Positions 2,211 to 55,328 of a DNA stretch of 64,000 nucleotides are shown here, piece by piece. The first letter of the stretch is position 1. Each line of letters begins with the position of its first letter. The translations under genes and the position numbers were made by a program. Location: NCBI GenBank assembly GCA_009392915.1, contig CP045477.1, positions 1-64,000 on the forward strand, given 5' to 3'. The notes beneath the pieces are model-generated. The model ran no database searches. It was not told the DNA's origin and was given only the letters and a program-made list of their open reading frames with translations. The stretch comes from Candidatus Forterrea multitransposorum CG_2015-17_Forterrea_25_41 (GTDB lineage Archaea > Iainarchaeota > Iainarchaeia > Iainarchaeales > CSSED10-239).

Positions 2211-5093
2211 TTAATCTAACCTCTCTGTTATTTCTTGCATGACCTCTTCTACAAAGAATTGCAATCCATTATATTTTAATATTTTAATAACTTCTTTATT
2301 TGTTTCTTTTTTAATAAGTTCTGCAAATTGCCCTGTTGCATTTCCTTCAATAACTATTATTTTTTTTGCAGATTTAAGTAAGTCTTTTGTTCCAGGATAA
2401 ATTGGATATAATTGTTCATAATGAAGATATTTTATTTTTTTATTATCTATTTTTTCAACAGCTTCTTTAATTGTTTCAAAAGTACTTCCCCATCCAATAA
2501 TAATTATTTCATTACCTTTTCCAATAATTGTTGGCTTTAAACTTTCAAAAGTTATATCTTCTATTCTTTTTAATCTTTTTTTAACCATTTTAATTCTTAA
2601 AGAAAAATCTTCTGTAATATGTCCTGTTTGGTCATGTTCGTCACTATCCACACAAACTAAACCTTTTCCAAAGCCAGGGATTGCTCTAGGGGAAATTCCA
2701 CTTTCTGTAAAAGCATATCTTTGATAATCTTTTTTACTTTCTATAATATATTTTTCTTTATCTTCTTTTATTTCTATTTTTTCAAAAGGATAAAGATTTT
2801 CCATAAAATATTGATCTGTTAATATAAAAACAGGAATTTGGTATTTTTGAGAATCAATAAAAGCTTTGTTTGTAATCTCTACAGCACTTTTTAAATTTTT
2901 AGGAGCATATACAATTCTTGCAAATTCTCCATGTCCAGCGTGCATAACTAAATTTAAATCTTCTTGAGCTGTTCTTGTTGGAAGTCCAGTTGCAGGTCCT
3001 GGTCTTTGAGCTACATGTATGACTAATGGAGTTTCTATCATTCCTGCAAGGCTTACACCTTCACACATAAGTGCAAATCCTCCACCAGATGTGTTTGTAA
3101 GTGATCTTGCACCTGCAAAAGATGCTCCTAAACACATGTTTATTGCTGAAATTTCATCTTCTGCTTGTTCTACAATAATATCAAAATTTTCTCTTAATTT
3201 TGCTAGATTTTGTAAAACACCTGTTGATGGTGACATTGGGTATGCTGATATAAAATCACACCCTCCAGCAATTGCTCCGTATGCTATTGCTTGAGCACCT
3301 GTAAATAAATTATTTAATTTTATTTGTTTATTTTTTTTAATTTTTGGTAAATTTTTAACTATTTTTAAAATTTCTTTTCCTTTTAAAATACCTTTTTCTG
3401 CTGCTTGAATATTTTTTAAAACAATTTCTTTTCCTTTTTTTGAAAAACTTTCTTTTAGTTGTTTTATAAAATATTTTTTATTAATATTTAGTATTCCTAA
3501 AAGAGTTCCTGTTGCAACAGTGTTTGCAAAAACTTTATTTCCTATTTTTTCTGCAATTTCTTTAAAGGAAACATCAATTGTTTTATTTTTAAGCCCTAAT
3601 TTTCTAACTTCTTCTTTATTTCCAATAATAATTGTATTTTCATCAATTCTTTCTTTTAAATGTTCTATAGTATTTTTATCTAAAGCAAGTAAAATATCTA
3701 TTTTTTTTAAATTTCCTCTTCTTTCTTTTTCTGTAAGTCTAATAGATATGGTGTTAACTCCTCCTCTAACTCTTGACATATATTCAGAGTTTGAAGAAAA
3801 GTAAAAACCTTCTTCTTTAAGTATTTTAAGTAAAACATTTTGAACAGATACAAGACCTTGGCCTGCTTCTCCAGAAAGTACAATTGATAATTCTTTTTCA
3901 TCTATTTTTTTATTTTTAATTTCTTTTTTAAAAAGTTCTTTTGTTTTTTCAGTAATTATCTTTGAAAATTCATTTAATTTTTTAAAGTTTTCTTTTTTAG
4001 GAATTCCTGTTGAAATTTCTCCTAAAATAACTTCTGCTTCAAAATTATTTGTAATATTTTCAAATTCTTTAAAGGCTTCCCCACCCCATTCTTTAGATCC
4101 AATAAATCCAATAATTTTTGTTTTTGGTTTTAATTTATTTAAAGTACTAACTGTTGTTGAAACAATAGGGTGAAGCCCACCTAAAAAAGTAGGAGATGCT
4201 ATAATTAAAGTTGACGCATCTACCATTTCAATTGCAAGTTGTCCTATCTCTGTAGTTGTAAGATTATATTCTTTAACTTTATTGCCTTGGTTAATAAGTT
4301 TAGAAGTTAAATATTCAACCATTTTTTTTGTACTTCCGTGCATAGAAGTATACCCAATAATTATTTTTGGTTTGGTTTCTTTTTTTGACCAATTATAGTA
4401 TTTATCAATTATCCAATCAACATCTTGGTATATTTTTCCATGACTTGGAGCTATTATTTTTGGATTATATTCTTTTATTTTTTCTAAGTTTTTAAGAATA
4501 TAATTTCTAAAAGGCATCATTATTTCTGCATAATATCTTTTAGCAGGTAATTCTATTTCTTTTGTATCTTTAACAAATAATTCGCTTGTTGCAAGATGTG
4601 CTCCAAAAAAATCACAAGAAAACAAAATTTTATCTTCTTTTAAAAAAGTAGACATAGTTTCTGGCCAATGAACCCAAGGAGTATAAATAAATTTTAAGGT
4701 TTTATCTCCTAAGCTAATTTCTTCTAAGTCTTTAATAACTTGTATTCTTTTTTCCTCAATTACCATTTCATCTAAAAGTATTTTTTTACAAAGAGGATTA
4801 CAAATTAATTTTGCTTTTGGAAATTTATTTAAAATTATAGGTATTGATCCAGAGTGATCTTGTTCTGCATGATTAGATATAATATAATCTATATTTTTAA
4901 TATTTAATTTTTCTAAGTTTAAAATAAGTTCTTCTGTTTTTGTAATGTCAACAGTGTCTATTAAAGCTGTTTTTTTAGATCCAATTATTAAGTATGAATT
5001 GTAGCTAGTTCCATCTGGAAGATAGATTAGTTCATCAAAAAGCTTTCTATCCCAATCAATGGCTCCAACTGAATATATGTTTTTCTTAATCAT
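2211..5093 (-). CDS. fusion protein: flavodiiron protein (metallo-beta-lactamase diiron + flavodoxin) joined to OFOR gamma and alpha modules
   Basis: aa 1-240 carry FDP diiron ligands HAEQDH, VHWPE, CDFFGAH, PSHG. aa ~243-390 are flavodoxin-like (GYTSMHGSTKKM). From aa ~401, SGEAGQG marks the OFOR gamma module. From aa ~595, TGAQAIAYGAIAGGCDFISAYPMSPST marks the alpha module. Confidence 0.8.
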   Translation of the reverse strand: MIKKNIYSVGAIDWDRKLFDELIYLPDGTSYNSYLIIGSKKTALIDTVDITKTEELILNLEKLNIKNIDYIISNHAEQDHSGSIPIILNKFPKAKLICNPLCKKILLDEMVIEEKRIQVIKDLEEISLGDKTLKFIYTPWVHWPETMSTFLKEDKILFSCDFFGAHLATSELFVKDTKEIELPAKRYYAEIMMPFRNYILKNLEKIKEYNPKIIAPSHGKIYQDVDWIIDKYYNWSKKETKPKIIIGYTSMHGSTKKMVEYLTSKLINQGNKVKEYNLTTTEIGQLAIEMVDASTLIIASPTFLGGLHPIVSTTVSTLNKLKPKTKIIGFIGSKEWGGEAFKEFENITNNFEAEVILGEISTGIPKKENFKKLNEFSKIITEKTKELFKKEIKNKKIDEKELSIVLSGEAGQGLVSVQNVLLKILKEEGFYFSSNSEYMSRVRGGVNTISIRLTEKERRGNLKKIDILLALDKNTIEHLKERIDENTIIIGNKEEVRKLGLKNKTIDVSFKEIAEKIGNKVFANTVATGTLLGILNINKKYFIKQLKESFSKKGKEIVLKNIQAAEKGILKGKEILKIVKNLPKIKKNKQIKLNNLFTGAQAIAYGAIAGGCDFISAYPMSPSTGVLQNLAKLRENFDIIVEQAEDEISAINMCLGASFAGARSLTNTSGGGFALMCEGVSLAGMIETPLVIHVAQRPGPATGLPTRTAQEDLNLVMHAGHGEFARIVYAPKNLKSAVEITNKAFIDSQKYQIPVFILTDQYFMENLYPFEKIEIKEDKEKYIIESKKDYQRYAFTESGISPRAIPGFGKGLVCVDSDEHDQTGHITEDFSLRIKMVKKRLKRIEDITFESLKPTIIGKGNEIIIIGWGSTFETIKEAVEKIDNKKIKYLHYEQLYPIYPGTKDLLKSAKKIIVIEGNATGQFAELIKKETNKEVIKILKYNGLQFFVEEVMQEITERLD

Positions 5094-7961: not shown

Positions 7962-10253
7962 ATGATTAAATCAATATATCTTGAAAATTGGAAAACCCAC
8001 CTTGATTCTAAGCTTTCCTTTCAAAAAGGAACAAACATACTCTTAGGTGTAATTGGTTCTGGAAAATCAAGTGTTGTTGATGCTATTTGTTATGCTTTAT
8101 ATGGTACATTTCCAACACTTTCAAACAGGAAAATAACTTTAGATGAAACTATAATGTTTAAACCTGTACAAAAAGAAAGTTTTAAGGTTATTTTAGAGCT
8201 TGTTCAAGAAAATAAATTATATTTAATAGAAAGAGAAGTATTTTCTGGAAATAAATCAAACTCTGCAAAAGTATATCTTGAAGGAAAGTTATTGGCTGGT
8301 CCTAAAAAAAGTGATGTTGATGAATTTATTTCAAAACTTTTAGGTATTGATTATAATCTTTTTATAAAAGTTGTATATTCTCAACAAAATGAAATTGATT
8401 ATTTTTTAAAAATAGCTCCTTCTAAAAGAAAAGAACAGTTTGATGATCTTTTTGGTATATCTCATTTTGAAAATATTAAAGTTTCAACAAGAGAAATTGA
8501 TAGACTTTTAAATCATGAAATTGATAAAAATGAACTTTTATTAAAACAAATAACTACTCAAATTTCAAATTATAATATAGAAGAACTTTTAGAAAAAGAA
8601 AAAGAAATAGCTGAAAAAATAACTTCTCTTGAAAAAGAAATTTTAGAAAAAGAAGTAAAAACTTTTTCTTTAAGTAAAGTAATTTCTGAAAAGAAGCTAG
8701 TTAAAGAAAAGCATGAATCCTTAACTTCTCAAATATCTTTATTTTCGTCCAGGCTTGAAGACTTTAATAAAGAATATACCTCTCTTTTAGAAAAAACTAA
8801 TCTTTCTTCTAAAGAAGAACTTGATCTCTTTGAAAAAGAGGTTTTTAAGAAAGAAAAATTCTTTAAAGAAAAACAAAATAAAAACAAAGAAACTGAGATT
8901 TTAAAAAAATCTTTAGATAACAAAATTTCTTTTTATGAAAATAATATTTTTCAAAACCAAGAAAGGATAAAAGAGCTTCTTTTAAAAATAGAAAAAGAAG
9001 AATTAACTATTCCTTTAATAGAGGAAAAGAAAAAATATCTTTTAGAAGAAATTGATTCTCTTAATATTTTAAAAATATCTTTACTTTCAAAACAAAAAGA
9101 TTTAGAAAAATCTTTTTATGAAATTTCTAAAGGCTTTTCAAACTGTCCTGTCTGTCAAACCCCTTTTACTGCAGATAAATTAACTGAAACTAAAGAGCAT
9201 ATAGATAAAGAGCTTTCAAGTCTATCTTTAAACCTAAAGGATTATTTAGAAAAAATAAAAGAAAAAGAAGATTTATTAAATCTGTTAAAAATAAAAGAAA
9301 AAACTTTAGAAAGAAATTTCTTAATTGAAAAACAAATTGAACAATTAAACAAAATAATTCTAGAAAATACTTATTTAAAAGAAAATGCCTTAACTGAAAT
9401 TAATTCTTTAGAAAAAATAGATGACTTGTCTGCTTTAGAAAAAGAAATTTTAAAAATAAAAGAGAGTCTTTCTCTTAAAAAAGAACTTTTAAAAATATCT
9501 GAAAAAATAAAAGAATACACCGAAAAAACAAAATTACAAAAAGAAGAGCTTTCAAAAATAAATTTTTCTCAAGAAGAATATCTAAATCTTTTAACAGATT
9601 ATAAAGGCTTAGAAAATAATTTCCTGCAAATAAAAGAATCCTTAACAAACTATAAATCCTTAAAAGAAAATTTAAAAAAACAATTAGAAAACCTAACCTC
9701 TCTTTCAAAACAAAAAGAAGAAGTAAGCCTTTCTTTTACAAAAATAAATAATAAAAAACAAGATCTTTCTTATTTTTTAAAAGCAATTGATAATAGCCAA
9801 CTACAGTTAAGAAAAGTTTTAATAGATAACATAAATCAAGCTCTTTCAATCATCTGGCCAAAAGTATATCCTTACAAAGATTATTTATCAGCAAGATTAA
9901 ATGCAGATAATGATTATATCTTAGAGGTCTTAACTTTAAAAAATAACTGGATAAGGGTTGAAGGTTTATTAAGTGGAGGAGAGAGGGCTTGTGCTTCACT
10001 TTCCATAAGGATTGCAATTTCTTTGATTCTTACAAAGAAATTAGGCCTTTTAATTCTTGATGAACCAACACATAATTTAGATGAAAAATCAATAGAGGCT
10101 TTATCAAATGTCTTAGAGGAAGAGCTTCCTGATCTTGTTGAGCAAATATTTATTGTGACTCATGATAATAAGCTTCTTGAAACAGTAAATGCAACTAAGT
10201 TTATAATAGAGAGAGATAAAGAAAACGATTCTGCTTCAAGAGTTAATTTTTAA
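7962..10253 (+). CDS. rad50: DNA double-strand break repair ATPase Rad50
   Basis: Walker A GVIGSGKSS, long coiled coils, zinc hook CPVCQ, signature LSGGE, Walker B LLILDEPT, H-loop VTHD. The ATG at 7962 is preferred over the upstream TTG of the ORF track. Confidence 0.9.
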   Translation: MIKSIYLENWKTHLDSKLSFQKGTNILLGVIGSGKSSVVDAICYALYGTFPTLSNRKITLDETIMFKPVQKESFKVILELVQENKLYLIEREVFSGNKSNSAKVYLEGKLLAGPKKSDVDEFISKLLGIDYNLFIKVVYSQQNEIDYFLKIAPSKRKEQFDDLFGISHFENIKVSTREIDRLLNHEIDKNELLLKQITTQISNYNIEELLEKEKEIAEKITSLEKEILEKEVKTFSLSKVISEKKLVKEKHESLTSQISLFSSRLEDFNKEYTSLLEKTNLSSKEELDLFEKEVFKKEKFFKEKQNKNKETEILKKSLDNKISFYENNIFQNQERIKELLLKIEKEELTIPLIEEKKKYLLEEIDSLNILKISLLSKQKDLEKSFYEISKGFSNCPVCQTPFTADKLTETKEHIDKELSSLSLNLKDYLEKIKEKEDLLNLLKIKEKTLERNFLIEKQIEQLNKIILENTYLKENALTEINSLEKIDDLSALEKEILKIKESLSLKKELLKISEKIKEYTEKTKLQKEELSKINFSQEEYLNLLTDYKGLENNFLQIKESLTNYKSLKENLKKQLENLTSLSKQKEEVSLSFTKINNKKQDLSYFLKAIDNSQLQLRKVLIDNINQALSIIWPKVYPYKDYLSARLNADNDYILEVLTLKNNWIRVEGLLSGGERACASLSIRIAISLILTKKLGLLILDEPTHNLDEKSIEALSNVLEEELPDLVEQIFIVTHDNKLLETVNATKFIIERDKENDSASRVNF

Positions 10254-10306
10254 ACTTTTTATTAAAAATAACCTTGTTTTTAAACATTTTTATCTATATA
10301 TTATTT

Positions 10307-11557
10307 ATGTCTTATATCCCTGATTTTCATAAGATTAAATACTTTACAGAAAAGTTTAAAGAATACTATCAAAATAATTATATCTCTTGTATATTGGATG
10401 TTTCAAAAAGAGAGTTTGGAATTGGTACTATACAATCTAAAATAAGTCAAAGACATTTATCTTTTGTATCTTTAGAAGATTTTAATAATTATTTAAGAAT
10501 TACTCCTCCTTTTTATGTTTCTTATTCAACAAGTTATTTTAAATATCCAGATAGAAGACCAATGGATAATAAAATATGGGAAGGTTCAGACATTGTTTAT
10601 GAGTTTGATTCAGATGATTATGATCTACCATGCCATGATAGACATAATACTTGGCAATGTACAAGTGAAGAATGTAATGAATGGGGTTATGGAAATTTAA
10701 CAGAATGCCCTAAATGTTTTTCAAAAACAAAGATTACAGAATGGACTTGTGATGAATGTTTAGGAAAAGCAAAAGAAGATACCTTAAGATTAGTTGATTT
10801 TTTAGAAAAAGAATTTAAATTAAATCCAGCAAGCTTTATTATTAGTTTTTCAGGTGCTAAAGGGTATCATGTAAGAATAACTGATAGAACAATAATTTCT
10901 TTATCTAAACCTGCAAGACTACAGATGATGAACTATATTTTAGCAAATGATTTAGAGCTTGAAAAATTAGGTTTTATAAAACAGAAAAAACTTTGGAAAA
11001 TACCACCTATAAAAGAAGCAGCTGGATGGTCTAAAAAGATTTTACATGGAATAATTGATATTTTTTCTTATGATGAAAAAAAGCTTATTAATTTATTTGG
11101 ACTTTCTCCAAAAAAAGCAAAACTTTTAAAGGATACAAAAGAAGATATTTTAAATAAGATGTATCATAATAATATATTAGTTGCTGATTTTTCTTCAAGT
11201 GATAAATTCTTTGAAGATGTTATAAATCATGTAATAAACAAGACTAGACTTAAAATAGACCCTCAATCATCTTCAGATATTTTTAAGATAATGAGGGTTC
11301 CAGATACTATTCATGGTGGTACTGGTTTTTTATCAACATATATTAAGACAAAAGAAGATTTAATTAATTTTGATCCTTTCAAAGATCCTGTTGTTTTAGG
11401 TACTATGGATCTAAAAAAAATAAAATTATTAAAACCAACACCTAAATTTAGAATAATTGACCAATATTATGGTCCTTATAATAAAGATGAGGTTTTAAAA
11501 CTTCCAGAAAAAGTATCAATGTTTTTAGTTCTTAAAGGGGTGGCAAATTTTGAGTGA
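10307..11557 (+). CDS. priS: DNA primase small (catalytic) subunit PriS
   Basis: Catalytic EFDSDD, GAKGYHVRI and RVPDTIHGGTG motifs, plus a Cys/His-rich zinc region. The ATG at 10307 is preferred. Confidence 0.85.
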   Translation: MSYIPDFHKIKYFTEKFKEYYQNNYISCILDVSKREFGIGTIQSKISQRHLSFVSLEDFNNYLRITPPFYVSYSTSYFKYPDRRPMDNKIWEGSDIVYEFDSDDYDLPCHDRHNTWQCTSEECNEWGYGNLTECPKCFSKTKITEWTCDECLGKAKEDTLRLVDFLEKEFKLNPASFIISFSGAKGYHVRITDRTIISLSKPARLQMMNYILANDLELEKLGFIKQKKLWKIPPIKEAAGWSKKILHGIIDIFSYDEKKLINLFGLSPKKAKLLKDTKEDILNKMYHNNILVADFSSSDKFFEDVINHVINKTRLKIDPQSSSDIFKIMRVPDTIHGGTGFLSTYIKTKEDLINFDPFKDPVVLGTMDLKKIKLLKPTPKFRIIDQYYGPYNKDEVLKLPEKVSMFLVLKGVANFE

Positions 11558-13751: not shown

Positions 13752-15299
13752 ATGGTCTTTAAAGAAAATGAACTTGGAATTGTTGTTTCAACAATGGATT
13801 CACCTTCAACTTCAAAGATCACTTTTGTTTGTACCAAAAAAGTTTATAAAGGACAGTATGTTCAAATAGAATACTCTCAAGGTAGTTTAATTGGGCTTGT
13901 AACAGATGTATCTTCTCAGAATAGATATTTTGAAAATAATGAATCTGTAAAAGAATTTGAAAGTTCTGATTATAATATCAATGATCAATTTCCAACTAGT
14001 GATTGGGAATTTTTAATTGCAAATATAAAGCCTTTAGGGGTTCTTTCAAAAGAAAATTTTTTTGTAAGATCTACTCTTCCAGTATCTCCTGGTTCAAAAG
14101 TTTTAATTTGTGAAAAAGAAGTTTTATTTAAATTTCTTCATTTAAAAAAGAATGGACTTAATCTTGGACAAATTGAATTTCCTACTCTTCCTGTTACTTT
14201 TTGTATGGATAGACTTTTACAAAAACATTTAGCAATTTTAGCACAGTCTGGGGCAGGAAAAAGTTATTTAACCTCTGTTGTTTTAGAAGAACTTTTAGAC
14301 AGAACTAAAGAAGAAGGGCAAGTTGCAATTTTATTATTTGATGTTCATGGAGAGTATTCTCATTTTTCACACCCTATAAAAGATTCTTCTCAACATAAAG
14401 ATTATTCTTCAAAGACAATAAAGATTAATTCTTTTGAAATAAAGATTGGAGTTTCTACTCTTTCTTTAAATTTCTTTTCATCTCTTTTACCTTCTTTAAG
14501 TTCTGCACAAAAACGTGAACTTGGAAGTGTTTTAAAAAAATTAAATGAAGATAAAAAAAATGGTTTAGGTCCTTTTGATCTAAAAGACATTATTAAAGAA
14601 ATTGAAAGACAAGAAGTTAAAGAAAATGTTTCAAAACCTTTAATTAATGCTTTAGGTGAACTTTTAGATTATCATCTTTTTGCAAAAATAGATTCACCTT
14701 CAATTTTTGATATTGTAAAACCTGGAAAATTAACCATTATTGATTTATCTAGAGAGATAAATCTTAAAAAGAAACAATTAATACTTTATTATTTTGCACA
14801 TAAACTTTTTTACTCAAGAACAAATCCTTCTTTAAATGTACCTCCATTCCTTTTAGTTGTTGAAGAAGCCCATCAATTTGCTCCAGAAAGTGCAAGTAAA
14901 GATAGAGCTATGGCAAAATCAATTTTAGAAACTATTGCAAGAGAAGGTAGAAAGTTTGGATCTTGTCTTTGTTTAATTTCTCAAAGACCTGTAAAATTAT
15001 CTACCACTGTGCTTTCACAGGCAAACACACATATAATTTTAAGAATAACTAATCCTTATGACTTAAAACATATAGGAGAATCATCTGAAGGACTTGATTC
15101 TAAATCAGTAGAAATGATAACTTCTTTAAGAGTTGGAGAGGCTTTAGTTGTTGGTGAAGCTTCATCTTATCCTGTGTTTTTTAAAGTTAGAAAAAAATAT
15201 TCTCAAGATTCTCATTTAGATGTTTCTCTTTCAGGGCTTGCTAAAAATTATTTAAAAAATACTTCTAATCAAGAGAAAGATATTGAAGGCTTTTTATAG
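13752..15299 (+). CDS. herA: HerA-like (DUF87) hexameric ATPase/helicase
   Basis: Walker A AQSGAGKSY, Walker B LLVVEEAHQF, ISQRP motif, N-terminal barrel-like region. Confidence 0.8.
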   Translation: MVFKENELGIVVSTMDSPSTSKITFVCTKKVYKGQYVQIEYSQGSLIGLVTDVSSQNRYFENNESVKEFESSDYNINDQFPTSDWEFLIANIKPLGVLSKENFFVRSTLPVSPGSKVLICEKEVLFKFLHLKKNGLNLGQIEFPTLPVTFCMDRLLQKHLAILAQSGAGKSYLTSVVLEELLDRTKEEGQVAILLFDVHGEYSHFSHPIKDSSQHKDYSSKTIKINSFEIKIGVSTLSLNFFSSLLPSLSSAQKRELGSVLKKLNEDKKNGLGPFDLKDIIKEIERQEVKENVSKPLINALGELLDYHLFAKIDSPSIFDIVKPGKLTIIDLSREINLKKKQLILYYFAHKLFYSRTNPSLNVPPFLLVVEEAHQFAPESASKDRAMAKSILETIAREGRKFGSCLCLISQRPVKLSTTVLSQANTHIILRITNPYDLKHIGESSEGLDSKSVEMITSLRVGEALVVGEASSYPVFFKVRKKYSQDSHLDVSLSGLAKNYLKNTSNQEKDIEGFL

Positions 15300-16279: not shown

Positions 16280-16306
16280 TTTTAAATTTTAAAAAATGTG
16301 TTTTTT

Positions 16307-18844
16307 ATGGATGATGCAAATTTAATGCTTTTAAAAAAGAAAGTAAAAGCTATAAAACAATATAAAGGCCAAGGTACTCAACTTATAAGTCTTTATCTTC
16401 CACCTGATGCAGATAGAAGTTCTGCAACAAAACAATTAACTGATGAAATGAGTCAATCTTCAAATATTAAGAGTGCTCAGACTAGAAAAAATGTACAAGC
16501 AGCTTTAAAAAGAATTATTAATTATTTAAAACAAATTGATTTTAAACTTCCTGAAACAGGTTTAGTTTTATTTTCTGGAGATGTTTCAACTAATCCTTCT
16601 AAATCAGATGTAATTTTACTTGCAATTGCACCTCCTGTAAGACTTACAACTAAGCTTTATTGGTGTGATTCAACATTTCACATAGCTCCTTTAGAAGATA
16701 TGGCACAAACAGATGATGTTTATGGTTTAGTTGTTCTTGACAAACGAGAAGCAACAGTTGCTATTTTAAGAGGAAAATCTAAAGAAATTCTTTTTTCAGA
16801 AACCTCAAATGTTCCTGGTAAAACAAAAGCCGGGGGGCAATGTTTAAAAGATGCTTTTGTATCTTTATCTGATGGGAATTTAATAGATGTTAGTGAAATT
16901 TCTAAAAAGGATATTCTTTCTTCTATGAATTTTAAACAAAATAAATTAATTAATTCTAAGGTTTTAGATAATTGGTCAGTTTCTAAAAATAAAACATATA
17001 TTATTAAAACAAAAGCTCCTGGTACAGAAATAAAAGCTAGTGAAGATCATATATTTTTTGTTTTAACTCCAGATGGTGTTGTTGAAAAAGCTTCAAAAGA
17101 TTTAACTTTAAATGATTATTTGTTATTTCCAGAAAAATTATCTTATAAAAATAAAATTTGGTCTTTTGATACTAAAAAATATATTTCTAAATTAAATAAA
17201 CCTTCTATAAAGATACCTATAAAACTTAATAATGTATTTGCTAAATTTTTAGGTTATTTATTAGGTGATGGTTCTATTGAAACTGATAGATTAACTTTTT
17301 ATGAATCTAGAAAAGATGTTATTTTAGAATATAAAAAGTTATTTGATAAATATTTTAATGTAAATTCTTCTTTAACTTTTAGAGATTCTAAAAATTATTA
17401 TCAATTAAGAGTTAATTCAACTGCTCTTGTAAGATTAATTAAAGAAGAATTTAAGGAAATTAAAAAAGCAAGAGATTCTTTAATACCTTCTAAAATATTA
17501 ACTTCTTCTAATAAAATATTAGCTAATTTTTTAAAAGGATTTTATGATGCTGAAGGTTATATTAATACTTCTAGAAAATCAATAGATATTGGAATAAATA
17601 ATAAAAAAATTGCACAACAACTTCAATTATCATTATTAAGATTTTCAATTATTGGATCTTTACAAGAATATGATAATAAACAAAATCCTTATACAAATAA
17701 CCATAGGTTTGTGATTTCAATTTCTGATAAAGAGTCAATAGATTCTTTTGAAAAAAATATTAATTTTACTTCTTTTGAAAAGCAAAAAAAAATAAAAAAA
17801 ATTCAAAAATTAAAAACAAACATGAGTTTCTCAAGAACACTTCCTGTATATGGTAGTCAGGTTAGATCTGTTGTTACAAAACATGGTTATAATTTAGAAC
17901 TTTTCCCAAAAGTGAGTAGTTTTTTCAATAATAATAGAATGCTTAGTAAATGCTTTTTTAAAAGTTCTGTTTTAGATTATGTTAAAGATAAATCTCTTTT
18001 AAAAGATTTAATTAAATTTTATAATATGCCATTTTTTGCTGCAAAGATAAATTCTATATTTATTGAAAAAAAGAAAACAATTATGACAGACATTTCTGTT
18101 GCTAATAAATCTTTTATTGCAAATGGATTAATTGTTCATAATTCAGCACATAGATTCGAAAGACTAAGAGATAAATATGAAGAAGAGTTTTATAAGAGAG
18201 TAGGTTCTAAAGTAAATACTGCTTTTGTAGATCTTGATAATTTTAAAGGAATGATTGTTGGTGGTCCTGGACTTACTAAAAATGAATTTTTAGAAATTGG
18301 TGATTTAGACCACAGAATAAAAGATAAAGTTTTAGGAACTGTAGATACTTCTTATACAGATGAGTCAGGTATAAAAGAAGTTTTAGATAAATCTGAAGAT
18401 ATTTTAAAAGAAACTGGTTTAGTTCATGAAAGAAAATTAATTAATAAGTTTTTTGAAGACTTAGCAAAAACAGGCCTTGCAAATTATGGTTTTCAAGATG
18501 TAATTGATGCCTTAAATATTGGTAAAGCTTCAACTGTTTTAGTGTCTGAAGGTTTAGAATGGACTGTTTTAATTTTTAAATGTTTATCAGACAAATCTAG
18601 ATTTATAAAAATTGTTAAAGATAAACATGAAGTTTCTGATACTATCTCAAAATTTGAAAATTCTCCAACAGATTGTCCAGAAGGTAAAGCAGAACTTGTT
18701 GAAGAAGTTGATATATATGATTATTTTATAGATATTTCTAAAAATACAAGTGCAAAAGTTGAACTTATTTCTATTGAAACTTTAGAAGGTAAACAATTTT
18801 TTGAAACTTTTGGAGGGCTTGCAGCTTTCTTAAGATATAGGTAA
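16307..18844 (+). CDS. prf1: peptide chain release factor aRF1, interrupted by an intein
   Basis: The exteins join to ...VPGKTKAGGQ|SAHRFERLRDKY..., the canonical aRF1 GGQSxxRF region. NIKS-like SNIKSAQTR in the N-domain. Confidence 0.9.
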   Translation: MDDANLMLLKKKVKAIKQYKGQGTQLISLYLPPDADRSSATKQLTDEMSQSSNIKSAQTRKNVQAALKRIINYLKQIDFKLPETGLVLFSGDVSTNPSKSDVILLAIAPPVRLTTKLYWCDSTFHIAPLEDMAQTDDVYGLVVLDKREATVAILRGKSKEILFSETSNVPGKTKAGGQCLKDAFVSLSDGNLIDVSEISKKDILSSMNFKQNKLINSKVLDNWSVSKNKTYIIKTKAPGTEIKASEDHIFFVLTPDGVVEKASKDLTLNDYLLFPEKLSYKNKIWSFDTKKYISKLNKPSIKIPIKLNNVFAKFLGYLLGDGSIETDRLTFYESRKDVILEYKKLFDKYFNVNSSLTFRDSKNYYQLRVNSTALVRLIKEEFKEIKKARDSLIPSKILTSSNKILANFLKGFYDAEGYINTSRKSIDIGINNKKIAQQLQLSLLRFSIIGSLQEYDNKQNPYTNNHRFVISISDKESIDSFEKNINFTSFEKQKKIKKIQKLKTNMSFSRTLPVYGSQVRSVVTKHGYNLELFPKVSSFFNNNRMLSKCFFKSSVLDYVKDKSLLKDLIKFYNMPFFAAKINSIFIEKKKTIMTDISVANKSFIANGLIVHNSAHRFERLRDKYEEEFYKRVGSKVNTAFVDLDNFKGMIVGGPGLTKNEFLEIGDLDHRIKDKVLGTVDTSYTDESGIKEVLDKSEDILKETGLVHERKLINKFFEDLAKTGLANYGFQDVIDALNIGKASTVLVSEGLEWTVLIFKCLSDKSRFIKIVKDKHEVSDTISKFENSPTDCPEGKAELVEEVDIYDYFIDISKNTSAKVELISIETLEGKQFFETFGGLAAFLRYR
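16841..18142 (+). mobile_element. intein (434 aa) with LAGLIDADG homing endonuclease, inserted after the GGQ motif of aRF1
   Basis: Starts with Cys (CLKDAFVSLSDG, block A) and ends ...GLIVHN followed by Ser. LAGLIDADG blocks LGYLLGDGS and LKGFYDAEGY. In frame with the aRF1 exteins. Confidence 0.85.
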
Positions 18845-18856
18845 GGTGTTATTTTT

Positions 18857-19363
18857 TTGATAAAGACATTTAAAGCAAGAAAGATTACAAAAACTAATAT
18901 TGGTTCTAAATGTGGAATCGTAGATATTCGTAAAAGAATTCTAGAAAATAAAACTTATTCTATTTCCTATACTATAAAAGGTAAGTCTTTAGAACTTAAT
19001 TTTTTAAAACGATATCGAAAATCTAATCTTAGTGATTTTAAAAATATTTATTCTGATCTTTTAAATATTGCAAAAGAAAAAAAAGTTAAAAAAATATATA
19101 CTAGTTCTTGGGTATTTTCAGAAACTAAAGGTTTATCTGAAAGATTAGGTTTTAAACTTGTTAAGGGTACTGATAAAAAATTAAATCTAATTAAAGAAAA
19201 ATATCCTGATTATAAAATTATAGGTATTGAACAAAGATTTTCTACAGATTCAATAAATTATGGTGTAATTCCTTGTTTAGTTTTAGAAAATAAATCTTTA
19301 AAAAAAGAAGTTATAATAAATATGGATAAAAATATGCTCCCAATATATGTAAAGGAACTTTAA
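18857..19363 (+). CDS. hypothetical protein
   Basis: 168-aa ORF with a TTG start and no recognisable motifs. Confidence 0.3.
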   Translation: MIKTFKARKITKTNIGSKCGIVDIRKRILENKTYSISYTIKGKSLELNFLKRYRKSNLSDFKNIYSDLLNIAKEKKVKKIYTSSWVFSETKGLSERLGFKLVKGTDKKLNLIKEKYPDYKIIGIEQRFSTDSINYGVIPCLVLENKSLKKEVIINMDKNMLPIYVKEL

Positions 19364-37617: not shown

Positions 37618-37699
37618 GCAGAGGTGGCGGAGTGGTCAAACGCGCCAGCCTTGAGAGCTGGAGCCTTGCGCTACACGAGTTCGAATCTCGTCCTCTGCG
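37618..37699 (+). tRNA. tRNA-Ser (anticodon UGA)
   Basis: Acceptor GCAGAGG/CCTCTGC. Anticodon stem CCAGC/GCTGG with loop CTTGAGA. Long variable arm and T-loop TTCGAAT. Confidence 0.9.
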
Positions 37700-37730
37700 C
37701 TTTATCTTTTAAAATATAGGAATTTTTATT

Positions 37731-38063
37731 ATGATTAAAGAAAACATTTCTTTTCAAGATTTTTTAAAACTTGATATAAGAATTGGAACAATTGTTGAGG
37801 CTGAAGCTGTTGAGGGTTCTGATAAATTAATAAAATTAATAATTGATTTTAAAGATTTTAAAAGACAGATTTTAGCTGGTATTAAAACAAAATATCAACC
37901 AACTGATTTATTAAACAAACAAATTCCTGTTATTGTAAATTTAGAACCTAGAAAAATGATGGGTTTTGAAAGTCAAGGAATGATCTTAGCTGTTGGAGAT
38001 AAAACTTTAGATGCTTTACTTTTACCATCTGAGCCTGTATCGGAAGGCTCGATTGTACACTAA
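37731..38063 (+). CDS. tRNA-binding domain protein (Trbp111/CsaA/EMAP-like)
   Basis: FLKLDIRIGTIVEAEAVEGSDKLIKLIIDF...GFESQGMILA matches the OB-fold tRNA-binding domain pattern. Confidence 0.8.
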   Translation: MIKENISFQDFLKLDIRIGTIVEAEAVEGSDKLIKLIIDFKDFKRQILAGIKTKYQPTDLLNKQIPVIVNLEPRKMMGFESQGMILAVGDKTLDALLLPSEPVSEGSIVH

Positions 38064-38084
38064 TTTTTTTTTAAAACTAAAAAT

Positions 38085-38166
38085 GCAGAGGTGGCGGAGT
38101 GGTCAAACGCGCAAGCCTGGAAAGCTTGAGCCTCGTGCTACGCGAGTTCGAATCTCGTCCTCTGCG
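38085..38166 (+). tRNA. tRNA-Ser (anticodon GGA)
   Basis: Acceptor, D and T arms are the same as in the first tRNA-Ser. Anticodon stem CAAGC/GCTTG with loop CTGGAAA. Confidence 0.9.
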
Positions 38167-38197
38167 CTTTTTTCTTTTTTAATTTAATATTTATTTT

Positions 38198-38286
38198 GCA
38201 GAGATGGCGGAGTGGTCAAACGCACAAGTTTCGAAAACTTGATTAAGGTTTTTTCCTTTACATGAGTTCAAATCTCATTCTCTGCG
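38198..38286 (+). tRNA. tRNA-Ser (anticodon CGA)
   Basis: Acceptor GCAGAGA/TCTCTGC. Anticodon stem CAAGT/ACTTG with loop TTCGAAA. Long variable arm AAGG-TTTTTT-CCTT and T-loop TTCAAAT. Confidence 0.85.
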
Positions 38287-41013: not shown

Positions 41014-44000
41014 ATGTCCGTAGAGAAATATAAAGCAACAAATGATAAAGATTTATTTGATGAAGTAGAATCTTCTAATAGAAAGTATGTTAATGAAGAT
41101 ACTATTAAAGATATTGAAGATAAATTAAAAAAATCAAGAGAAGAACATCCTTTAGAAGATGTTGAAAATTTTTCTGAAATTGATGATTCTGAAGATGATG
41201 ATTCTGAAGATGATGATAACTTAGATGAAGTTGATTTAGAAGAAAACTCTGAAGATGAAAATTCAGAAGATAATAATTCAGAAGATAATAATTCAGAAGA
41301 TAATAATTCAGAAGATAATAATTCAGAAGATAATAATTCAGAAGATAATAATTCAGAAGATAATAATTCTGAAGATAATGATATAGATGAAGCTGATTTA
41401 GAAGAAGACTCTGAAGATAATAATTTAGAAGAAGATAATGTTGAAAAAGACCTAAATGAAATTGATTCTAAAGAATCAGATTTAAAAGAAGATTTTACTA
41501 AAAACTCAAATATATCAAAAGAGATTACTAAAGATAAAGATATACCTGCTAAAAGTTCAGAAATTATAATTAAACCAGCACTTAAATTCTTAGAAGATTT
41601 ACAAGACCCTAATGTAGTTTATTTAGGTAGAAAAAAATCTGTTTTAAAACAATATGGAAAGATAGCTACAGCATATATAGGAAAAGTTGCTGAAAATCAA
41701 CAAGAAGGCAAACAAGTTAACATAGATGGTCTAAATCCACACGTTATTTTCTTAGATGGTGCTAGAGGAACAGGTAAGAGTTATCTTTTAGGGGTAATAG
41801 CAGAAGAGCTTGCAAGAACAAACCCATATATAGGGCAAATAGTAATTGATCCTGTAGGTGTTTTCTGGTCAATGAAATTTCCAAACAGAGATTCAAAAGA
41901 ATTAAAAATTTTAGAAGAATGGGGTTTAAAGGCAGAAGGTCTTAAAAACTTAAAAGTCTTTGTTCCAGAAGGTATAGTTTCTCAAGTTTCAAAAGATACT
42001 TATGATGACACTTTTTCAATGTTTCCTTCTCTTTTAACTCCAGAAGATTGGTGTTTAACTTTTGGTATTGAAAGATTTTCTCCATCAGGCTTACTTTTAG
42101 AAAAAACTTTAGAGTCTGTAAAGAAAGGATATGTTACAGGTGGAACAAAAGATGTTCCTGATGTTAAAAAAATATCAGCAAAAGGAAATCATTTTACTTT
42201 AGAAGATATTATTAACTGTCTTCAAAACAATTCTGAATTTCAATCTTCTCAAAAAGGTTATAAACCAGATTCTATAAGAGCTTTAGTTTCAAGATTTGAA
42301 GCTGCAAGATCTTGGGGTATATTTTCAGATTCTGGAACTCCTCTTTCAAAACTTTCAAGAGAAAATCAATTAACTGTGCTTGATACTTCTTTTTTAGATG
42401 AAAATATTACTGCTTTAGTTATTGGTATTTTAGCTAGAAGAATTCTTTCTGCAAGAAAACTTCTTGCAAGACAAGAAGCTGTTAAAAAATATGGTGATTC
42501 AACACAAAAAGCAGAAGAACTTTTAGAAATTGAAATTCCTCCAACATGGATGTATATTGATGAAGCACACACTTTAATTCCTTCTGGAAATTCTCAAACA
42601 CCAGCAACTGCAGGAATTATAGAGTATGTTAAGCAAGGAAGAAGACCTGGTTGTTCTTTAGTTTTTGCAACACAACAGCCTTCTGCAATAAACACTAAAG
42701 TTTTATCACAAGTTGATATATTAATCTCAAATAAATTAGTTTTTAATGATGATATTTCTGCAATTCAAAAAAGAATGCCTGCAATAATACCAAAGCAATA
42801 TAAAGAACCAAATTTTATAAAGACTTTGCCTTTTGCAACTGCTCTTGTAGGAGATAGATCAGAAGAAACTTCTAGAGCTTTTATTTTAAGAGCAGCACCA
42901 AGAAGATCTCAACATGAAGGTCGTGATGCAGAAACAATTAGAGAGATTCCTAAAAAAAATAAATCTGAAGTTTTAGAAATTGCTTTTAAAATGGTTTATG
43001 AAAAATTAGAAAAAACAAAAGAAATTAAAGTGTCTTTTGCAAAAGATATTTTAGATGTTATTAATATTAAATATAGAGGAACTGTTGAATATGATGAACT
43101 TTTAGAAAAACTTTTAGAAAAAAATGTTTTACTTAAAGAAGATCTTCTATATCTTAATGAAAATTTTTTCAAAGAATATAATCAAGAAGAAAAATTAGTT
43201 TCTAATGATTCCGAAAATACTGATGAAATAAATTCTTTAGATGAAAATGAGCTTGAAAATATTGAAGAAAATTTAGAACATGTTAAAAGTAGTGTTTCAA
43301 AAGTAAAAGTAAGAAATACTATTGCAGAAAGAATTTCAAAAGCAAATATTGAAGAAATTGCAAATCAAAATATTAAAAAATCTTTATTATTTAAACCAAA
43401 AGAAGAAATTTTAAATATTGTTTTAAAATATAGAACAATTTATAAAATAAGTTATAATGTTTATGATTCACAAGATTCTTTTAAGACAAATACTTGTTTT
43501 GTGGATTCTGTAACTGGTGAGTTTATACATTTTTTAAATGGAGAGTTTAAGATTTCTTCTGGTTTAAATGTTTTAGATAAAATTAATGAAGATTATTTAG
43601 AGATTCTTTATCTTTTAAATAAACAACATACTTTGTTTTCTTTAAATCAAGAAACAGATATTGAAGAAAAAGATTTAATTGAAATGATTGATTCTTTTAA
43701 AGAATTAAATTTAATTACTGTTAAAAATAATTCTGGTATAGATGTTTATAAAATAGATTCAAAAGCTTTTGATATTCCTTTTAACCCGACTATTAAAGTT
43801 CTTTCATCTTTAGATGTTTTACCTTTAAAAAAACAAGATGTTGAGTTTTTAGAATCAATAAACTATTCTTTAAATGTTATTCAAGATAATTTAAAGAAAT
43901 TATGGGGTGAAATTGAATTTACTTCTCTTCAAGAAATCTATTGGCCAATTTGGCAAATTACTTATAATAATAAAGAAGGAAATAGAGTTTTAAAAGTAGA

Positions 44001-44025
44001 TGCTGTAACAGGCAAAAAAATGTGA
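41014..44025 (+). CDS. large HerA/FtsK-like P-loop ATPase with acidic repeat N-terminus and uncharacterised C-terminal half
   Basis: Walker A LDGARGTGKSY, Walker B WMYIDEAHTL, ATQQPSAI. N-terminal (SEDNN)n low-complexity tract; 1003 aa. Confidence 0.65.
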   Translation: MSVEKYKATNDKDLFDEVESSNRKYVNEDTIKDIEDKLKKSREEHPLEDVENFSEIDDSEDDDSEDDDNLDEVDLEENSEDENSEDNNSEDNNSEDNNSEDNNSEDNNSEDNNSEDNNSEDNDIDEADLEEDSEDNNLEEDNVEKDLNEIDSKESDLKEDFTKNSNISKEITKDKDIPAKSSEIIIKPALKFLEDLQDPNVVYLGRKKSVLKQYGKIATAYIGKVAENQQEGKQVNIDGLNPHVIFLDGARGTGKSYLLGVIAEELARTNPYIGQIVIDPVGVFWSMKFPNRDSKELKILEEWGLKAEGLKNLKVFVPEGIVSQVSKDTYDDTFSMFPSLLTPEDWCLTFGIERFSPSGLLLEKTLESVKKGYVTGGTKDVPDVKKISAKGNHFTLEDIINCLQNNSEFQSSQKGYKPDSIRALVSRFEAARSWGIFSDSGTPLSKLSRENQLTVLDTSFLDENITALVIGILARRILSARKLLARQEAVKKYGDSTQKAEELLEIEIPPTWMYIDEAHTLIPSGNSQTPATAGIIEYVKQGRRPGCSLVFATQQPSAINTKVLSQVDILISNKLVFNDDISAIQKRMPAIIPKQYKEPNFIKTLPFATALVGDRSEETSRAFILRAAPRRSQHEGRDAETIREIPKKNKSEVLEIAFKMVYEKLEKTKEIKVSFAKDILDVINIKYRGTVEYDELLEKLLEKNVLLKEDLLYLNENFFKEYNQEEKLVSNDSENTDEINSLDENELENIEENLEHVKSSVSKVKVRNTIAERISKANIEEIANQNIKKSLLFKPKEEILNIVLKYRTIYKISYNVYDSQDSFKTNTCFVDSVTGEFIHFLNGEFKISSGLNVLDKINEDYLEILYLLNKQHTLFSLNQETDIEEKDLIEMIDSFKELNLITVKNNSGIDVYKIDSKAFDIPFNPTIKVLSSLDVLPLKKQDVEFLESINYSLNVIQDNLKKLWGEIEFTSLQEIYWPIWQITYNNKEGNRVLKVDAVTGKKM
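41251..41370 (+). repeat. 15-bp coding tandem repeat (GAAGATAATAATTCA), about 8 units
   Basis: Six consecutive perfect units at 41266-41355, flanked by one-mismatch units. Encodes (EDNNS)n. Confidence 0.9.
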
Positions 44026-45328: not shown

Positions 45329-45422
45329 AATTATTTTTTCCTATATCTTTAATATACGATATTACTATCAAAGAGATTATAAATATTTATCTTTATAAAT
45401 GTTTTGGTTTTCTTTTTTATAT

Positions 45423-47465
45423 ATGTATCTTAATAAAAATGCTATTTCTCCATTAATAGCAAGCATTTTAATTATTGTTGTAGTTGTTGCAGTTATTGGT
45501 GTGATTCTATTATGGGGTAAAAACTTTACAAATGAAAGTTTAACTTCCACTTATACTTTTTCACAAGATAAAACTGTTTCTGATTTTGTTTGGCAAGATG
45601 ATATTACTGGTAAAAATCTTTTTATAAAAAACACACATATATCATTAAGTAAAACTATTATTGGTTATAAAATAAACAGTTCCTTAGATTATGCTTATCT
45701 TAATAAATATCATTATCTTGATGAATCTTTTTTATTATCTAAAAATTCCATTGCTCAATTAACTTTAGGTTGTGTTCCAGAAAAGAATTTTTCAATTGAA
45801 CTTTTAACAGACTCTAATGAATATATTTCTTTTCCTGTCACTTCTAAGTTTTTTGATCCTTCAGAATGTACTTTTTCTTTTTCAATAACTTCTCCTTTGG
45901 AAAATTCAATCAATGCTTTAAATTCTAGTATTTCATTTACTTCTGAAATTTTAAATTCTTCAGGTACTCCTTCTTGTACTTGGATTTCTTCAATTGATGG
46001 TACTTTTTCAACATCTTGTGATGCAACTTATTCTTCTTTATCTTCTGGTTCTCATGATATTAATTTAGTTGTTGAAGATTCTGGTGATATTTTAACACAA
46101 TCAACTTCAATTATTGTAAAAGATTCTTTAGAAAGTATTATTTCTACTCCTTCAAATTCATCAAATCATTTATTTAGTGATACAATTTCATTTAGTGGTA
46201 CTGCAGATAATAATTTTGGTTCTCACACTTGTTCTTGGACTTCTTCTTTAGATGGTTCTCTTTCAAGTGATTGTAGTTTTAGTTCTAGTTTATCTCCAGG
46301 CACACATACTATTACTTTACAAGTAACTGATTCTCTTGAAACAGCATCTTCAAATATTTCTATAGATGTTTATGCTTTATTAGTTGCTTCTGTTTCTCTT
46401 CCTGCTAATAATTCTACAAAATCTTTAGGAAGTCCTATCTCTTTTTCATCAAGCATTTCTGGAGGCGATGGATCTTATTCTTGTAGTTGGACAGATAATG
46501 GTTCTCCTTTAAGTTCTAGTTGTTCATTTAGTCATACTTATCCACAAGGAAGTTGGTCTGAATATCAAGATATGCCTCAAGGTAGAGATTATCATGATTG
46601 TGTAGGTGTTGGTGATAAACTATATTGTTTTGGAGGAGATGATTCTACTTATAATGTAGAAAGAACTACTCAAATTTATAATTCTACAACAAATACTTGG
46701 TCTTTAGGTGCAAATATGCCTGCAGATAGAGAGCTTCCAGCATGTAGTTATTATAATGGAATAATTTATTGTATAGGAGGATTTAATAGTTCTTGGGATT
46801 ATGTTAATTCAAATTATGCTTATAATATTTCTACAAATTCTTGGTCTAGTAAAACTTCTATGCCAACAGTAAGAGCTGAACATGATTGTACTGCCTTAGA
46901 TGGAAAAATTTATTGTTTTGGTGGAAATAAAGATGGTGGAGGTGCAAGTAATCTTCTTGAAATATATAATATTTCAACAAATTCTTGGTCAACAGGTACA
47001 AGTTCACCTTCAGGAAAAGCAAATCATAATTGTGAGGGTTTAAATAATAAGGTTTATTGTATTGGTGGTACAACTACTACTTTAATATATGATGTTTTAT
47101 CTGATTCATGGTCTACAGGTACAACTATCTCAACATCAAAATCATCTGGAGCTTCTGATTTATATGGTACTAAAATTTATTATGGAGGAGGTTCTTCTGC
47201 TGCACTTTTAGTTTACGATACTGTTTTAAATAGTTGGTCAACTCTTGCTAGTTTACCTTATTCTAACAGATCTTATATAGGTTGTGGAATTGCAGATAAT
47301 ACTTTTTATTGTGCAGGAGGAGATTCAAGTCAAGGTAGAGAAACATACATGGATAAATTACATGGATATTCTATAGGTGCTACAGGAACACATGAAATTG
47401 AATTAAATGTAAGTGATGGTTATGGTCAAACTGCTTCTAATACAATAAATATTAATGTTCAATAG
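45423..47465 (+). CDS. pilin-signal surface protein with PKD-like repeats and a Kelch beta-propeller
   Basis: N-terminus NAISPLIASILIIVVVVAVIGVILLWGKNFTNESL. Repeats of the form C-x-W...DG...C...G-x-H-x-I-x-L-x-V-x-D. Five to six Kelch-like blades (YCFGG/YCIGG...W). Confidence 0.7.
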   Translation: MYLNKNAISPLIASILIIVVVVAVIGVILLWGKNFTNESLTSTYTFSQDKTVSDFVWQDDITGKNLFIKNTHISLSKTIIGYKINSSLDYAYLNKYHYLDESFLLSKNSIAQLTLGCVPEKNFSIELLTDSNEYISFPVTSKFFDPSECTFSFSITSPLENSINALNSSISFTSEILNSSGTPSCTWISSIDGTFSTSCDATYSSLSSGSHDINLVVEDSGDILTQSTSIIVKDSLESIISTPSNSSNHLFSDTISFSGTADNNFGSHTCSWTSSLDGSLSSDCSFSSSLSPGTHTITLQVTDSLETASSNISIDVYALLVASVSLPANNSTKSLGSPISFSSSISGGDGSYSCSWTDNGSPLSSSCSFSHTYPQGSWSEYQDMPQGRDYHDCVGVGDKLYCFGGDDSTYNVERTTQIYNSTTNTWSLGANMPADRELPACSYYNGIIYCIGGFNSSWDYVNSNYAYNISTNSWSSKTSMPTVRAEHDCTALDGKIYCFGGNKDGGGASNLLEIYNISTNSWSTGTSSPSGKANHNCEGLNNKVYCIGGTTTTLIYDVLSDSWSTGTTISTSKSSGASDLYGTKIYYGGGSSAALLVYDTVLNSWSTLASLPYSNRSYIGCGIADNTFYCAGGDSSQGRETYMDKLHGYSIGATGTHEIELNVSDGYGQTASNTININVQ

Positions 47466-55210: not shown

Positions 55211-55328
55211 TGTTAGCGGCCATAGGGATGGAGAAACACCTGGACCCTTTCCGAACCCAGAAGTTAAGTCTATTGCCGTTTTAGTTCGCTGTTAGTTCAT
55301 GCTAGTAGCGTCTTTAAAGCTGCTAACA
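55211..55328 (+). rRNA. rrf: 5S ribosomal RNA (orphan, not linked to 16S/23S)
   Basis: GCGGCCATAGG...CCGAACCCAGAAGTTAAG core. Terminal helix TGTTAGCGGC/GCTGCTAACA. Confidence 0.85.

Follow-up and report, generated by a model that had tools for sequence, protein, structure and literature searches.

A predicted class-1 intein with a LAGLIDADG homing endonuclease at the GGQ motif of the archaeal release factor aRF1

How does an archaeon terminate translation when the gene for its release factor, aRF1, is interrupted directly after the codons of the catalytic GGQ motif? This question is raised by the window analyzed here, the first 64,000 nucleotides (64 kb) of contig CP045477.1 from Candidatus Forterrea multitransposorum, which encodes the archaeal markers AglB, FttA, Hel308, and HerA. 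The interrupting segment (positions 16841 to 18142, forward strand) is very probably a full-length class-1 intein that carries a two-motif LAGLIDADG homing endonuclease and lies between GGQ and the following Ser (GGQ↓S; the arrow marks the junction) in an AT-rich DPANN archaeon of the Iainarchaeota/Diapherotrites type, as judged from sequence comparisons and a predicted structure. Conserved motifs, family models, the predicted fold, precisely empty alleles in syntenic loci, and signatures of homing all agree with the original prediction of a homing-endonuclease intein at this site.

The longest open reading frame (ORF) across the interval extends from 16298 to 18844 on the forward strand and encodes 848 amino acids from a GTG start codon, the length first given for this gene. 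An ATG at 16307, three codons further in, is the likelier start because database homologues are 845 amino acids long and begin with MDDANL. From this start, the aRF1 precursor gene occupies positions 16307 to 18844 of the forward strand (845 codons plus TAA). The precursor scored 416.5 bits against the NCBIfam aRF1 equivalog model TIGR03676 (cut-off, 234.7), and the Pfam domains eRF1_1, eRF1_2, and eRF1_3 (PF03463, PF03464, and PF03465) were identified on both flanks of the insert, eRF1_2 in two stretches. The N-extein (16307 to 16840, forward strand; 178 amino acids) comprises domain N, with the aRF1 motifs NIKS and YWCDSTF, and the first part of domain M, and ends in KTKAGGQ. The C-extein (18143 to 18844, forward strand; 233 amino acids plus the stop codon) starts with Ser+1 of SAHRFERLR and supplies the remainder of domain M and domain C. 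GGQ adjoins SAHRF only once the insert is removed; the deletion of 16841 to 18142, boundaries that had been proposed from the outset and proved exact, fuses ...VPGKTKAGGQ to SAHRFERLRD and yields an aRF1 of 411 amino acids. This spliced extein is collinear with the solved archaeal aRF1 4AF1, without gaps through GGQSAxRFxRLR (E value, 5e−80), and likewise with eRF1 structures.

The insert consists of 434 in-frame codons without a stop, from CLKDAFVSLSDG to NGLIVHN, and its insertion point lies between Gln178 of GGQ and the Ser of SAHRF. Residue conservation was assessed in an alignment of 108 homologous inteins excised from database proteins. Splicing block A (CLKDAFVSLSDG; 16841 to 16876) opens with Cys1, the first nucleophile, which is invariant (108/108). 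The core of block B, S67-E-D-H70 (17039 to 17050), is equivalent to TxxH, and both S67 and H70 are found in every homologue. The first LAGLIDADG motif, LGYLLGDGS (intein residues 137 to 145; 17249 to 17275), falls within a match to PF14528 and contains the catalytic Asp143, retained in 105 of the 108 inteins. The second, LKGFYDAEGY (residues 231 to 240; 17531 to 17560), contains the catalytic Glu238, which is Glu in 95 and Asp in 9, so this position is acidic in 104 of 108. A conserved helical region at residues ∼321 to 400 (17801 to 18040), with the pattern GYNLELFPKV..FF.N.RM.SK and a ratio of nonsynonymous to synonymous divergence (dN/dS) of 0.19 to 0.26, forms four helices in the AlphaFold2 model. 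It separates the endonuclease core from block F and probably serves as an accessory domain that contacts DNA. Blocks F and G (TIMTDISVANKSFIANGLIVHN; 18077 to 18142) include Asp417, His433, and Asn434, each invariant across the 108 sequences. The element ends in VHN (residues 432 to 434) followed by Ser, and Ser was the +1 residue at all 109 recognizable C-terminal junctions. Cys1, the SEDH of residues 67 to 70, two LAGLIDADG blocks, and VHN before Ser, the motifs listed in the original prediction, were all present.

Pfam identified Intein_splicing (PF14890; E value, 7e−18) and LAGLIDADG_3 (PF14528; E value, 2e−18; two stretches) in the insert. NCBIfam matched it to the intein parts of the models for IF-2, V-ATPase A, RpoA'', GyrA, and DnaB, as well as to the N-terminal splicing model TIGR01445. 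Since Pfam and NCBIfam thus recognize both the intein and the aRF1, a chance resemblance is excluded. By every sequence and fold criterion, the insert is a class-1 intein, predicted to splice, and a two-motif LAGLIDADG homing endonuclease, predicted to cleave. Its GC content (21.0%) is below that of the extein (29.1%) and the window (24.6%), but this was not relied on as a sign of foreign origin because conserved genes are often GC richer in AT-rich genomes.

An AlphaFold2 model of the 845-amino-acid precursor, built on 76 sequences, had a mean predicted local distance difference test score of 87.4, with most of the intein above 90. Foldseek searches with this predicted structure identified aRF1 4AF1 (E value, 2e−27), to which the intein aligned as one long gap, and the TliVMA intein 7QSS (E value, 2e−25; target template modeling [TM] score, 0.77); further matches were to PI-PfuI (1DQ3), PI-TkoII (2CW7), and PI-SceI (1VDE). 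TliVMA and PhoVMA (7QSS and 7QST) and PI-PfuI, the intein of a ribonucleotide reductase (RNR), are also the nearest solved relatives by sequence (E values, 4e−11 to 5e−9), at an identity of only 15 to 18%. They resemble the model of the intein with a Foldseek probability of 1.0 and target TM scores of 0.66 to 0.77, and share with it the Hint domain split by a two-motif LAGLIDADG endonuclease, Cys1, and the terminal HN. Whereas these inteins occupy the active sites of V-ATPase A or RNR, the element in the window occupies GGQ↓S of aRF1, and unlike them it carries the extra helical region before block F. Outside aRF1, the nearest relatives are archaeal MCM, RadA, and GlmS inteins (28 to 32% identity; E values, 1e−30 to 1e−35), which have the same set of domains. 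These elements reside in proteins of replication, repair, and metabolism, where inteins are classically found, whereas the host in the window is a core translation factor. Another translation factor, aIF2/IF-2, also hosts an intein (NCBIfam PRK14845), and this was the best-matching intein-containing NCBIfam model (E value, 1e−16). The aIF2/IF-2 element, however, is inserted in the P-loop region of the GTPase, and the aRF1 element in the peptidyl-tRNA hydrolysis loop; the two are different alleles.

The original prediction could not recall aRF1 as a standard intein host. That holds for the literature that was searched, as described below, but not for the sequence databases. A search with the precursor showed that at least 160 clusters (90% identity) at an E value of ≤1e−10 carry the same-site element. 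Same-site insertions were thereby found among metagenomic aRF1 homologues, as the original prediction had suggested looking for: among the 120 matches listed, GGQ↓C was present in 119 and a recognizable HN↓S(A/S)xRF in 109. Across this GGQ-site family (P0002 to P0120 and loci L004 to L009), identities range from 39 to 89%. The source names of occupied alleles include Candidatus Woesearchaeota, Nanoarchaeota, Diapherotrites, and "Candidatus ainarchaeum." Going by these database sequences, the GGQ-site element of aRF1 is common, mostly in proteins named as DPANN archaea (Iainarchaeota/Diapherotrites, Woesearchaeota, and Nanoarchaeota). Among GTDB representative genomes, metagenome-assembled genomes named Candidatus ainarchaeum or Iainarchaeum carried the closest inteins (82% and 78% identical), which, along with the GC content of the window (24.6%) and its archaeal markers, assigns the window to a DPANN genome of Iainarchaeota type. 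When only the intein was used as the query, an exhaustive phmmer search returned 2,432 representatives at an E value of ≤1e−3 and 61 at ≤1e−30; 59 of the 146 newly returned best matches had aRF1 exteins.

Members of the family share the insertion point (GGQ↓C...HN↓S) and the splicing and endonuclease blocks with the window's intein but differ in size. Approximately 85 of the 108 inteins are ∼505 amino acids long and carry an XRE-type helix-turn-helix (HTH; PF01381) of ∼68 amino acids, which is probably an accessory DNA-recognition module. It sits after the equivalent of intein residue 114 (between positions 17182 and 17183 of the window), separating the N-terminal Hint lobe from LAGLIDADG motif 1. 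The clade to which the window belongs (P0001 to P0009) has a uniform 434-amino-acid form without it. Elsewhere in the family, inteins lacking the HTH have nearest neighbors that possess it: P0014 (431 amino acids) is closest to P0017 (505 amino acids), and P0059 (436 amino acids) is closest to P0079 (508 amino acids). The HTH has thus undergone repeated loss. A further form was found in P0023 (682 amino acids), whose extein is 70% identical to that of the window and which carries, at the same GGQ↓S site, a mini-intein of 271 amino acids without a LAGLIDADG domain. This mini-intein is a degenerate stage of the homing cycle.

Two occupied proteins, P0304 (1,187 amino acids) and P0308 (1,452 amino acids), contain a second intein upstream of the one at GGQ. 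It ends in ...VHN↓CDDH and precedes the Cys of the YxCxxxF motif (YW↓CD), which constitutes a second insertion site in aRF1. In the window, this site (∼16661 to 16666) is empty.

A search with the spliced extein identified intein-free aRF1s of 411 amino acids at 92%, 87%, 80%, 79%, 77%, and 74% identity. Around two of these (P0121 and P0123), the genes are arranged as in the window: HerA (515 amino acids), a phosphoribosyltransferase (155 amino acids), a small ORF, aRF1, (a 168-amino-acid ORF), TruD, and Hel308. A BLASTN alignment of the window with the empty locus L001 broke exactly at 16841 and 18143, and occupied and empty alleles differ by precisely 1,302 bp. The empty site of L001 reads ...GCTGGTGGTCAA followed directly by TCAGCACATCGTTTT..., and the same codon boundary is common to six occupied and three empty alleles (L001 to L003). 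The shared gene order and this exact shared boundary identify L001 to L003 as orthologous empty sites instead of paralogues. No co-conversion tract is visible at this divergence, as the identity between the window and L001 is not raised beside the junction.

The 168-amino-acid ORF between aRF1 and TruD (18857 to 19363, forward strand) has no family match. It is also present in L001, L004, and L005 and is absent from L002, L003, L006, and L007, in which TruD directly follows aRF1.

In a neighbor-joining tree of the exteins, occupied alleles are intermixed with empty ones at several depths. The empty P0121 groups with the occupied P0001 to P0003, and empty and occupied alleles are paired in P0128/P0010, P0130/P0011, P0136/P0012, and P0140/P0019, respectively. 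The window and L004, a 105-kb contig from the Joint Genome Institute (JGI), share 95% identity along 11.5 kb, including 96% and 95% in the two exteins, but only 82% nucleotide and 78% protein identity in the intein, the drop being abrupt at positions 16841 and 18142. The synonymous divergence (dS) of the intein is 0.59, compared with 0.18 and 0.26 for the exteins. Intein and extein identities are similarly uncoupled in other relatives (99% extein and 79% intein for P0003; 83% for both in P0005). The simplest reading of these sequence comparisons is that the intein was gained or exchanged separately from the host gene, since a threefold higher dS is not expected from relaxed constraint alone. 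Values of dN/dS were 0.16 to 0.21 in the endonuclease core, 0.2 to 0.5 in the N-terminal Hint lobe, 0.03 to 0.21 in the C-terminal lobe, and 0.02 to 0.29 in the exteins (0.02 to 0.10 in the N-extein), indicating that purifying selection acts on the endonuclease as well as on the host gene. Taken together, the empty syntenic alleles, the interleaving, the incongruence of intein and host, and an endonuclease dN/dS of ∼0.2 point to an active homing cycle in which the element is still moving among DPANN archaea. Loci L001 to L009 show empty sites and full-length and HTH-less inteins, to which P0023 adds the mini-intein, representing all stages of that cycle.

Two points weigh against the interpretation of the insert as a mobile homing-endonuclease intein. 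Its intein is without the HTH carried by most members of the family, and the endonuclease may bind DNA less well for that reason. In addition, the higher divergence of the intein could partly reflect relaxed constraint instead of transfer, although the threefold higher dS argues against this. The element could, alternatively, combine competent splicing with an inactive endonuclease and be a fixed, vertically inherited passenger, kept only because its imprecise loss destroys GGQ. The missing HTH would fit such a passenger, as would the identical 434-amino-acid form of all nine closest occupied alleles and the mini-intein of P0023; the homing cycle normally passes through a stage at which the endonuclease decays. 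However, the endonuclease retains its two catalytic acidic residues, its core has a dN/dS that matches the low values of the splicing lobes, empty alleles occur within the same clade, and the histories of intein and host are sharply discordant. Because such a combination would hardly arise unless the element had moved recently, an inactive endonuclease is unlikely, and an intein with a functional homing endonuclease remains the preferred interpretation.

Under that interpretation, the steps from precursor to mature factor would follow the standard class-1 pathway, for which the required chemical groups are present and conserved. Translation would yield the 845-amino-acid precursor, in which Cys1, aided by Ser67 and His70 of block B, would undergo an N-S acyl shift at the Gln178-Cys1 bond. 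Attack of Ser+1 on the resulting thioester (trans-esterification) would produce a branched intermediate, from which cyclization of Asn434, aided by His433 and by Asp417 of block F, would release the intein. An O-N shift would then restore a normal GGQ-S peptide bond in the 411-amino-acid aRF1. The freed intein of 50 kDa would cut the GGQ↓S-coding sequence of intein-free aRF1 alleles, and repair from the occupied allele would copy the intein in by gene conversion (homing).

The GGQ loop of eRF1 and aRF1 must reach the peptidyl-transferase center. With a domain of 434 residues placed within this loop, the precursor should be inactive and active factor obtained only by splicing. Using TBLASTN with the extein as the query, no second aRF1 was identified in the 64-kb window, the locus itself being the sole match. 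Together with the strong purifying selection on the exteins, this makes it likely that termination in the host depends on splicing. A corresponding search of the window with the intein as the query likewise returned only the locus itself and no other inteins, and Hint and LAGLIDADG domains were absent from nine large ORFs of the window scanned with Pfam. Were the insertion unable to splice, the gene would be nonfunctional or repurposed and a second, uninterrupted aRF1 elsewhere would perform termination. The search for such a copy spans 64 kb of the genome, which leaves some room for it, but no other aRF1-like sequence occurs within that span and aRF1 is single copy in most archaea. The low dN/dS of the exteins (particularly the N-extein), the invariance of the splicing residues across 108 homologues, and the position of the locus, which is the conserved orthologous location of aRF1 and is empty in relatives, likewise make a nonsplicing insertion highly improbable.

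Splicing could also be conditional on redox state, temperature, or substrate, a proposal compatible with a class-1 homing intein. The intein would then serve as a switch that regulates, after translation, how much active release factor is available and, by gating the only class-I release factor, as a global throttle on termination and ribosome recycling in DPANN archaea instead of a purely selfish passenger. Insertion at the catalytic loop, where the precursor must be inactive, lends itself to such a role, and conditional splicing has been documented for other archaeal inteins, such as that of RadA (as cited in PMC4760082). Close relatives, however, lack the intein, and its patchy distribution fits selfish homing, so both the switch and the throttle seem improbable. 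A redox switch in particular was rejected as a candidate: there is no conserved cysteine to pair with Cys1, and Cys371 is Glu in the family consensus.

Full-text literature searches found no description of a natural intein in aRF1 or eRF1, the matches being to the ARF1 GTPase or to papers on genetic-code expansion. The InBase registry is not known to list an aRF1 allele. The main text of the survey by Novikova et al. has no release-factor entry, and a paper on Bodo saltans virus mentions eRF1 and inteins separately. Core translation components are described in a large survey as holding few inteins (PMC4760082). The GGQ-site intein of aRF1 is thus unreported in the literature found, yet it is abundant in public metagenomic proteins and partly annotated there by automated means; JGI, for instance, names several occupied proteins [quoted passage not shown]

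The mechanism itself is ordinary and involves no departure from standard intein biology; what is noteworthy is the insertion site. As a rule, inteins insert at those residues of essential proteins that are most constrained, and the aRF1 element is a clean natural example in which the residues are those of the universally conserved peptide-release motif. The family is suited to the study of intein dynamics in uncultured, genome-reduced archaea and offers new inteins with Cys1 and Ser+1 that tolerate Gln at position −1. NCBI names P0002, P0011, P0043, P0051, and others "LAGLIDADG family homing endonuclease" or "helix-turn-helix domain-containing protein." Under such names, aRF1 could be scored as missing in marker-gene or completeness analyses.

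Variation in the GGQ motif itself was also observed among database aRF1s. The N-extein ends in GGW, GGM, GGF, or GGS, not GGQ, in 15 intein-bearing proteins (P0248, P0260, P0265, P0271, P0272, P0278, P0281 to P0284, P0286, P0289, P0290, P0302, and P0305). The C-extein begins with SQxR(Y/F) in 14 of the 15 and with SAGRY in P0278. After splicing, such proteins would carry GGxSQ. A GGxSQ motif has been described in the aVLRF1 and acVLRF1 families (Burroughs and Aravind, PMC6514570). Among the intein-free aRF1s most similar to the extein of P0260 (P0386 to P0505), 118 of 119 have GGW-S(Q/A)xRY in place of GGQ-SxxRF. Their source names are Candidatus Aenigmarchaeota, and the Trp of GGW is encoded by TGG (locus L010, positions 10001 to 11218). 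These proteins score 463 to 497 bits on TIGR03676, above its cut-off, and keep NIKS and YxCxxxF. No paper on aRF1s with GGW was found in full-text literature searches. Neither these GGW, GGM, GGF, and GGS variants nor the second intein at YW↓CD occurs in the window.

Several other genes in the window were also noted. An ORF of 960 amino acids (2211 to 5093, reverse strand) encodes an unusual fusion of an N-terminal ODP/metallo-beta-lactamase domain with regions resembling the gamma (POR) and alpha (POR_N) parts of pyruvate:ferredoxin oxidoreductase. The 515-amino-acid HerA that precedes aRF1 lies at 13752 to 15299, and the HerA/DUF87 central domain is the sole match of a protein of 1,003 amino acids at 41014 to 44025 (forward strand). 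A protein of 688 amino acids with PKD and Kelch repeats is encoded at 45399 to 47465 (forward strand). Three clustered tRNA genes were located at 37618 to 38286, and a lone 5S rRNA gene (55212 to 55328) lies just upstream of the AglB/STT3 gene.

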